The position numbers and the translations under genes are program-made. From Escherichia coli (GTDB taxonomy: Bacteria; Pseudomonadota; Gammaproteobacteria; Enterobacterales; Enterobacteriaceae), in NCBI RefSeq assembly GCF_003334815.1, contig NZ_QOWO01000032.1: a DNA stretch of 42,979 nt, one strand, 5' to 3'. The first letter of the stretch is position 1, and every line of letters starts with the position of its first letter. The notes beneath the pieces are model-generated. The model made no database searches. It worked only from the letters and a program-made list of their open reading frames with translations, and was not told where the DNA came from. Positions 3,539 to 4,804 of this stretch are shown here, in pieces.

Positions 3539-4804
3539 TTACGGTTTGAAGTCCAATGGCGCGTTTTTGAACACTTCATATACTGCCTGGCTTGGTGGTT
3601 TCGGGATCTTCGCAAGTTTAGCTGCTGCCAACGCAGCCTGACAAAGTGCGGGATCGCCACCTTCAGGTTTGATATCCAGTAACATACCATCGGGTGCCAG
3701 TTTTATGCGCAGCGTACAGGTTTTGCCTGCATAGGACGATGCGTCATAGAACTTACTTTCGATAGCAGATTTAATCTGCCCGGCATAGTTATTGATATCG
3801 GCCCCTGATGCGCCATTGTTTTTAGTATTACCACTCCCGGCAGGCGAAGCATTGTTCCCTTTCGCCCCTCCCCCCGTTTTCGGTGCATTCTTACCAGAGC
3901 TTAGCTCACCGAAAATATCATCTGCCTCTGCGGCCGCTTTTGCTGCAGCGGCTTTTTCAGCTGCAGCTTTTGCCGCTGCCGCTTTTTTGTCTGCGGCGGC
4001 TTTTTCTGCCGCTGCTTTCTTATCAGCTGCTGCCTTTTCAGCAGCCGCTTTTTCTGCTGCTTTTTTGTCGGCTGCAGCTTTCTCTGCTGCCGCTTTCTTA
4101 TCAGCTGCAGCCTTTTCAGCAGCCGCTTTCTTCTCAGCTTCTGCTTTGGCTTTTTCAGCAGCTTCAGTTGCCGCTTTCTTTCTTGCTTCAGCTGCAGCTG
4201 CTTCTGCCGCTTCCGCTTTCTTCTTCAGTGCCGCAGCGGCTGCCTCGGCTTTTTTCTGCGCTTCGGCTGCGGCTTTGGCGGCTTCTGCTTCTGCTTTTTT
4301 CTTTGCGTCTGCAGCCGCTTTCTTCGCTGCTTCTTCCGCAGCTTTAGCATCTGCTTCGGCCTTCGCTTTAGCATCTGCCGCCGCTTTCGCTGCCGCCTCT
4401 TCAGCTTGCTTCTGCTTTAACTCGGCCTGTTTTGCGGCTTCTTCAGCCTGCTTTTTCTGCTCCTGAGCCGCTAACCGCTCTTTCTCAAGTTGCTTCAGGC
4501 GTTCCTGTTCAGCCGCTTGTTTCTCACGCAGTTCTTCAGCAGCCTGCTGTTCCTTCATCTTGCGCTGTTCATCAGAACGCTTCGCGCTTGATTCCTGGCT
4601 TTGCATGCGTTTGTACTGCTCAACTACCGCACCTGAATCAACCATGACAGCGTCGATGGACGAACCACCGCCGCCTCCGGCTGAAGCTTCTATATTCTCA
4701 TCGAACGAACTCCAGATCAGCGCCGCAAATAAGATGACATGCAGCACTGCTGAAATAATTATCGCCCGCTTGAGCTTGTCGTTTTGTTCGGTTGCCTTTG
4801 ACAC
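3539..4804 (-). CDS. tolA: Tol-Pal system protein TolA
   Basis: 421 aa; N-terminal transmembrane anchor, long Ala/Lys/Glu-rich helical domain II, C-terminal globular domain. Confidence 0.95.
   Translation of the reverse strand: MSKATEQNDKLKRAIIISAVLHVILFAALIWSSFDENIEASAGGGGGSSIDAVMVDSGAVVEQYKRMQSQESSAKRSDEQRKMKEQQAAEELREKQAAEQERLKQLEKERLAAQEQKKQAEEAAKQAELKQKQAEEAAAKAAADAKAKAEADAKAAEEAAKKAAADAKKKAEAEAAKAAAEAQKKAEAAAAALKKKAEAAEAAAAEARKKAATEAAEKAKAEAEKKAAAEKAAADKKAAAEKAAADKKAAEKAAAEKAAADKKAAAEKAAADKKAAAAKAAAEKAAAAKAAAEADDIFGELSSGKNAPKTGGGAKGNNASPAGSGNTKNNGASGADINNYAGQIKSAIESKFYDASSYAGKTCTLRIKLAPDGMLLDIKPEGGDPALCQAALAAAKLAKIPKPPSQAVYEVFKNAPLDFKP
3900..4470 (-). repeat. Degenerate in-frame tandem repeats encoding TolA domain II
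   Basis: Repeated DNA blocks (for example gctgccgctttcttatcagctgcagccttttcagcagccgc and variants) encoding KAAAEKAAADKKAAAEKAA-type repeats. Confidence 0.7.

Follow-up and report, generated by a model that had tools for sequence, protein, structure and literature searches.

[quoted passage not shown] Its domain II is a long alpha-helical connector (PMC3477136), and in strain MG1655 the C-terminal part of this domain is encoded by 13 imperfect 15/18-bp repeats (Zhou, Michiels, Aertsen 2012, PMC3477136). A survey of 234 isolates by PCR sizing and Sanger sequencing found 8–16 repeat units (Zhou, Vanoirbeek, Aertsen, Michiels 2012, Res Microbiol 163:316, as summarized in PMC3477136). The repeats contract at a frequency of 6.9e-5, which drops to 15% of that value in recA and rises 3.3-fold in uvrD, and deletion of five units is the predominant contraction event (PMC3477136). 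Engineered alleles with 2–39 units complement a tolA deletion to stress-dependent degrees, and how well cells tolerate deoxycholate, or high salt at low pH, depends on repeat number (PMC3477136).

Here, we analyze tolA in a 42,979-nt stretch of E. coli DNA (the window) together with the open reading frames (ORFs) on its opposite strand. The locus agrees with the published E. coli tolA repeat (PLoS One 7:e47766, PMC3477136, and Res Microbiol 163:316 as cited there) in gene, tract, 15/18-bp units and in-frame copy-number variation, the published K-12 allele having 13 units. Our analysis goes beyond that description in surveying 5,426 complete genomes, where ~30% of the sampled genomes encode a TolA that is not 421 aa long (range 394–436 aa), in finding that a separate 24-bp repeat encoding ADAKAKAE is also polymorphic (allele L009), and in identifying alleles that differ by an indel without any SNP.

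Three other groups of systems bear on this locus. In contingency loci and in-frame repeat proteins, such as the alpha C protein of group B streptococci (as cited in PMC3477136), changes in unit number likewise alter the length of an envelope or surface protein via recombination or slippage. In contrast to these, the tolA units are degenerate, each being unique in sequence, their contraction is modest (~7e-5), and a change in number tunes the length of a spacer; it neither switches expression on or off nor alters an antigen. Shadow ORFs (Merino et al. 1994 and Silke 1997, as cited in Mir et al. 2012, PMC3454372) are likewise long antisense frames explained by the composition and codon usage of the sense gene; the cause at tolA, however, is an extreme Ala/Lys/Glu low-complexity segment and not genome-wide codon bias. 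Finally, the overlapping genes proposed in O157:H7 (pop, antisense to ompA, PMC7103648; ~200 candidates, bioRxiv 10.1101/2020.11.18.388249) likewise include an antisense ORF of several hundred bases in an envelope gene. Support for the O157:H7 candidates comes from strand-specific RNA-seq, ribosome footprints, promoters and phenotypes; the tolA antisense ORFs do not occur in the candidate tables searched, some of which are incomplete.

The window carries a K-12-type tolA in the tol-pal cluster

The minus-strand ORF at 3539..4804 is TolA. The gene and its central domain are located as follows.

3539..4804, minus strand: tolA coding sequence, 421 aa, GTG start (ORF list, family models and DNA identity)
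3875..4663, minus strand: TolA domain II region, residues 48–310 (domain limits from the literature)

In a search of complete E. coli genomes, the DNA of this gene was 100% identical to tolA of K-12-type genomes. The product matches the NCBIfam TolA equivalogs over its full length (NF007065, 554 bits against a cut-off of 213; TIGR02794, 308 bits against a cut-off of 59), and residues 325–419 match the TolA C-terminal domain, domain III (Pfam PF06519, E = 2e-38). A hydrophobic stretch near the N-terminus, AIIISAVLHVILFAALIW (residues 14–31), can be read directly from the sequence. The gene lies within a ybgC-tolQ-tolR-tolA-tolB-pal-cpoB cluster in the expected order, with a tolB-like ORF on one side and tolR-, tolQ- and ybgC-like ORFs on the other, and a locus identical to that of the window is annotated as the tol-pal cluster in NZ_CP043189.1.

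Domain II is dominated by three amino acids: its 263 residues include 104 Ala, 51 Lys and 39 Glu (40%, 19% and 15%, respectively). Its composition is not uniform, as the N-terminal part is rich in Gln, Leu and Arg whereas the remainder is Ala-rich.

Domain II repeats are nested in a 78-bp duplication

A sequence-only reading of the window had described the DNA at 3900..4470 as degenerate tandem repeats encoding TolA domain II. This span corresponds to TolA residues ~112–302 and thus lies inside domain II, and Tandem Repeats Finder detects periodic DNA in two places there, at 3927..4147 and 4327..4391. We distinguish three repeat features, all found with this program.

3927..4147, minus strand: main tract of degenerate tandem repeats (15- or 18-bp units, KAAA[E/D]K(K)) and chief site of in-frame length variation
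3976..4134, minus strand: 78-bp (26-aa) higher-order repeat, two copies
4327..4391, minus strand: short second repeat with a period of 24 bp (ADAKAKAE), polymorphic

In the main tract, periods of 15, 30, 33, 45 and 78 bp overlap or are nested in one another. The best-scoring period is 78 bp, with 2.0 copies, 88% matches and a score of 255. The two copies are identical at 68 of 78 bases and use the same codon at 17 of the 25 positions that encode the same residue, where 9.9 would be expected from tolA codon usage. The repeat is therefore a duplication at the DNA level, beyond low complexity at the level of the protein. The 78-bp repeat is likely the substrate for the larger deletions and insertions by unequal recombination, and the published five-unit deletion probably reflects recombination between its two copies. 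Every repeat unit length in tolA is a multiple of three, so TolA can change in length without loss of the reading frame.

tolA length varies in frame among E. coli genomes

All 5,426 complete E. coli genomes searched contain tolA. Sampling at even spacing along the ranking of these genomes yielded 59 full-length matches, of which 41 (~70%) are 1266 bp long and encode 421 aa. The other 18 (~30%) measure 1185, 1215, 1221, 1233, 1251, 1263, 1275, 1290, 1296, 1299 or 1311 bp, each of them divisible by three. With the 1266-bp form, the sample thus comprises 12 distinct lengths that span 1185–1311 bp, or 394–436 aa.

We fetched 12 variant alleles, each of which translates without a stop into 394–436 aa. 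They differ from the window only by indels in the domain II repeats and by SNPs that fall mostly on third codon positions. The indels are all multiples of three, and in 11 of the 12 alleles they map to window positions ~4063–4180 in the KAAA[E/D]K(K) tract; L009 instead carries one additional 24-bp unit in the ADAKAKAE repeat, at ~4376. Across the 12 alleles, there is essentially no variation in the N-terminal anchor, in domain III or in the first half of domain II.

Several alleles differ in length only. L004, L005 and L007 have zero SNPs relative to the window yet carry indels of -45, -33 and +30 bp, respectively, and tolA of the O157:H7 strains Sakai and Z869 differs by a single 30-bp indel with no mismatch. 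Alleles that carry an indel and no SNP indicate that indels accumulate faster than point substitutions at tolA. Ten E. coli alleles together show 44 distinct SNPs; 41 of these lie at third codon positions of tolA, and in that gene 40 are synonymous and 4 nonsynonymous.

The tolA repeats are therefore a hotspot of in-frame length variation, as had been proposed from the window and as was already published: tolA deviates from the common length in 18 of the 59 full-length matches, and every indel in the 12 fetched alleles is in frame and within the repeats.

Three antisense frames are open across domain II

The two antisense ORFs that the sequence-only reading singled out, of 224 and 154 aa, match the ORF list exactly. 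Together with a third open frame and a series of terminator-like sites, they occupy the plus strand opposite domain II.

3792..4466, plus strand: antisense ORF, 224 aa, TTG start (ORF list; stop-to-stop 3789..4466)
3883..4347, plus strand: antisense ORF, 154 aa, GTG start, 40% Leu (ORF list; stop-to-stop 3826..4347)
3905..4420, plus strand: third antisense frame, in codon register with tolA, 171 codons with no stop, its sole start-type codon a TTG at 4406
3928..4289, plus strand: nine terminator-like sites (hairpin plus T-run) found by scan, inside the antisense ORFs

The three frames are simultaneously open over ~440 bases, and the open frames extend well past the strict repeat tract. The longest of the ORFs, that of 224 aa, and tolA have their third codon positions in common. 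Ala (45%), Ser (18%) and Phe (17%) dominate the predicted product of this ORF, and both it and the 154-aa translation contain few Lys or Arg residues. The 224-aa frame is open in 13 of 13 E. coli alleles examined, and antisense ORF lengths track the TolA indels across alleles, ranging from 197 to 239 aa. The terminator-like sites exceed the number found in shuffled sequences (9 observed against 2.6 +/- 1.7) because GCN-GCN...AAA codons of tolA are read backwards on this strand.

TolA composition holds the antisense frames open

The register of the 224-aa frame relative to tolA determines what it can encode. The three bases of each of its codons are, in order, the complements of position 2 and position 1 of one sense codon and of position 3 of the sense codon before it. 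In this mirror reading, GCN returns GCN (Ala opposite Ala), AAR becomes TTN (Phe/Leu), and GAR or GAY becomes TCN (Ser), which accounts for the Ala/Ser/Phe-rich make-up of the 224-aa product. Stops can arise in this frame only opposite Tyr, or opposite Gln or His that follow a codon ending in T. The frame is bounded by such sites, a TAG at 3786..3788 opposite Asn339-Tyr340 and a TGA at 4464..4466 opposite Ala113(GCT)-Gln114(CAG). Between Gln114 and Tyr340, TolA contains no stop-making combination, and the frame therefore stays open for 225 codons.

Our main null model kept the TolA protein fixed and permuted its own synonymous codons. Under this null, the open run of the 224-aa ORF frame is 225 codons against a mean of 263 (P = 0.75), that of the codon-aligned frame is 171 against a mean of 184 (P = 0.74), and that of the 154-aa ORF frame is 173 against a mean of 125 (P = 0.095). 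This mild excess, like a similar one in Providencia (see below), is not significant after multiple testing, and repeat units that arose by duplication are not independent draws. A second null, which drew on the background codon usage of the window's other long ORFs, gave the same answer. We set aside a null made by shuffling codons within domain II, which mixes the Gln/Leu/Arg-rich and the Ala-rich parts; under it, frames 0 and 2 appeared mildly long (P = 0.044 and 0.01, respectively).

Given the TolA protein, the antisense ORFs are thus no longer than expected by chance, and their lengths add nothing to what the TolA sequence already tells. The amino-acid composition of residues ~114–340, not repetition as such, holds the antisense frames open. 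This refines the earlier proposal that the degenerate repeats, with their Ala/Lys/Glu codons, produce the antisense ORFs.

Coding potential of the antisense ORFs

None of the signals expected of a gene was found for the antisense frames. The three frames contain no ATG, TTG and GTG being the only start candidates, and a consensus scan detected no Shine-Dalgarno-like motif before any of these candidates. A consensus scan of the plus strand from 3300 to 3792 revealed no promoter-like site. The predicted products have no NCBIfam or Pfam match, an Rfam scan of the whole window placed no RNA family in or antisense to tolA, and the 14 RefSeq records examined annotate tolA only, with no antisense gene across it.

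Substitutions among E. coli alleles differ in what they reveal about the two ORFs. In the 154-aa ORF, SNPs fall on second codon positions and are 28 nonsynonymous versus 2 synonymous, so that no constraint is visible in this frame. In the 224-aa ORF, 33 are synonymous and 3 nonsynonymous, a pattern that is uninformative since it is forced by the wobble positions that this frame has in common with tolA.

DNA of other genera was compared through TolA proteins obtained from a word-indexed protein search. This search, run with full-length TolA, was swamped by low-complexity words, and the close Escherichia/Salmonella clusters were absent from the best 8,000 candidates, which were scored; it was unsuited to a length census. 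In Proteus, Providencia, Xenorhabdus, Sodalis and Photorhabdus, conservation of the antisense open runs is lacking: the shortest spans 36 codons and the longest 196. The frame equivalent to the 224-aa ORF is open for 116, 171, 64, 143 and 196 codons in the five genera (64 in Xenorhabdus), as expected from each TolA. Of 15 frame tests in these genera, 14 fall within the fixed-protein null; the other, Providencia frame 2, has P = 0.037, which is not significant after multiple-test correction.

A published ribosome-profiling survey of antisense candidates in several E. coli strains points weakly the same way. In the partly incomplete supplementary tables of bioRxiv 10.1101/2020.11.18.388249, no candidate falls within EDL933 tolA (860625..861809), and the tables for other strains, also partly incomplete, list none with TolA as the mother gene; neither the name of tolA nor its locus tags or product occur in them. 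Reads from repeats that map to more than one place may have been discarded by the authors. Absence from these tables counts only weakly against translation.

The earlier judgement that the antisense frames are artefacts holds up on the fixed-protein null, on the lack of an ATG, Shine-Dalgarno-like motif, promoter-like site or family match, and on the lack of conservation in five genera. We infer that the antisense ORFs are not translated.

Alternative explanations

The 224-aa antisense ORF could instead be a real, weakly expressed overlapping gene, akin to the O157:H7 candidates opposite ompA and other genes, whose hydrophobic, Ala/Ser/Phe-rich product changes in length together with TolA. Earlier work has proposed antisense overlapping genes in E. 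coli, the ORF is open in all 13 alleles examined, and its SNPs are 33 synonymous versus 3 nonsynonymous. However, the third positions common with tolA force this SNP pattern, and 225 codons against a null mean of 263 (P = 0.75) leave no length to be explained. The frame offers TTG starts only, with no ATG and no Shine-Dalgarno-like motif; no promoter-like site lies upstream, and nine terminator-like sites lie inside. Its product matches no protein family, the corresponding frame in Xenorhabdus is open for just 64 codons, and the ribosome-profiling tables searched, both at EDL933 860625..861809 and for the mother gene 'cell envelope integrity', do not list it. We therefore regard an overlapping gene as very improbable, and we give no better odds to a variant of this reading, in which the frame is expressed now and then and yields a hydrophobic polypeptide, rich in Ala, Ser and Phe, whose length follows that of TolA. 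In that case, one repeat indel would alter two proteins at once.

The length differences in tolA admit two further readings, of very different standing. Sequencing or assembly artefacts of the repetitive region would be a natural suspicion, since repeats cause misassembly, and the metagenome-derived 'TolA' sequences P0001, P0003, P0011 and P0028 do turn into unrelated sequence in or after the repeats. Yet all 18 variant lengths and all 12 fetched alleles are in frame, the 12 alleles are free of stops, and independent complete genomes share a variant length (1311 bp in H53-H57, for example). The tract, at ~220 bp, is shorter than an ordinary sequencing read, and the 8–16 units found in 234 isolates came from PCR sizing and Sanger sequencing (reference 25 of PMC3477136, as reported there). 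Artefacts are thus an extremely unlikely source of the variation. A more serious contender accepts the variation as real and takes it to be near-neutral, with domain II a tolerant spacer whose length drifts by recombination error and not a bet-hedging contingency locus. The natural range in our sample is just 394–436 aa, and ~70% of genomes keep 421 aa. Engineered variants with 2 to 39 units all rescue a tolA deletion at least partly, every one of them fully restores tolerance to 4% SDS, and no repeat expansions were recovered under deoxycholate selection (PMC3477136). Against neutrality, more repeats bring higher deoxycholate tolerance, and at either extreme of repeat number cells cope less well with high salt at pH 5 (PMC3477136), and such contrary effects point to opposing selective forces on TolA length; moreover, the natural 8–16 units are a narrow part of the tolerated range, which suggests stabilizing selection. 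On balance, near-neutral drift is a possible explanation that we hold to be somewhat doubtful.

Model for tolA length variation

The locus is, with high confidence, the known length-variable repeat of tolA domain II accompanied by antisense shadow ORFs that TolA composition produces. In the model that we favor, the C-terminal half of domain II is built of head-to-tail imperfect 15/18-bp units (KAAAEK / KAAADKK) nested in the 78-bp duplication, with the 24-bp repeat close by. Misaligned recombination or replication slippage between units adds or removes whole units, and contraction is largely RecA-dependent, as described in PMC3477136. The membrane anchor and the C-terminal domain are thereby separated by a spacer whose length can vary, and the long antisense ORFs are passive shadows of the Ala/Lys/Glu composition of TolA. 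Neither component is new: the repeat variation was published in 2012, and antisense shadow frames have long been known.

The antisense tolA ORFs provide a worked example that ORF length alone is no evidence of a gene; for such ORFs, gene callers and screens for overlapping genes should use a null in which the sense protein is fixed. On the sense strand, the tract is already documented as a hypervariable in-frame repeat by which the length of TolA's periplasmic spacer is tuned. It is also a known source of misassembly and a useful marker for typing and microevolution.

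Repeat-number variation in tolA

The tolA genes of two O157:H7 strains, Sakai (L001) and Z869 (L003), align with 0 mismatches and differ by a single repeat indel of 30 bp; repeat number therefore varies inside one clonal serotype. A search of 5,426 complete E. coli genomes for tolA located two places each in a few genomes and two matches on plasmid records. One match (H60) is incomplete, as it ends at the edge of its record.

The protein search returned four metagenome-derived 'TolA' proteins (P0001, P0003, P0011, and P0028) in which identity to E. coli TolA ends in or after the repeat region. 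Beyond the breakpoint, they run into unrelated sequence that resembles a citrate lyase ligase or a tRNA synthetase, or is out of frame. The repeats probably gave rise to these proteins through misassembly or frameshifting.

Terminator-like sites opposite the repeats

The plus strand opposite the tolA repeats contains nine terminator-like sites, each a hairpin followed by a T-run, between positions 3928 and 4289 of the window, compared with 2.6 ± 1.7 in shuffled sequences. They probably arise as a side effect of reading Ala-Ala...Lys codons in reverse. Any antisense transcription across the repeats would tend to be halted at these sites.

RNA features elsewhere in the window

An Rfam scan of the window identified the following features:

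5..592 (-), Lys/Val tRNA cluster
129..295 and 417..585 (-), two RtT-like repeats in the tRNA-gene spacers of this cluster
1519..1657 (-), CpoB/ybgF intergenic thermometer (RF02782), full-length, 142 bits, between pal and cpoB
18221..18383 (-), 22755..22825 (+), and 40207..40249 (-), naRNA4 (three copies) and the ES036 sRNA

The start of the window falls within the Lys/Val tRNA operon. Two of the three naRNA4 matches are at the gathering threshold, and the naRNA4 and ES036 matches look like intergenic repetitive extragenic elements.

The sucD-cydA interval

We compared the sucD-cydA interval of O157:H7 EDL933 (L013; NZ_CP008957.1, 841957..854935) with that of a K-12-type genome (L019; locus positions 8812..14270). 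EDL933 carries a methylaspartate mutase/methylaspartate ammonia-lyase cluster together with other genes, whereas the K-12-type genome has mngR-mngA-mngB in this position.
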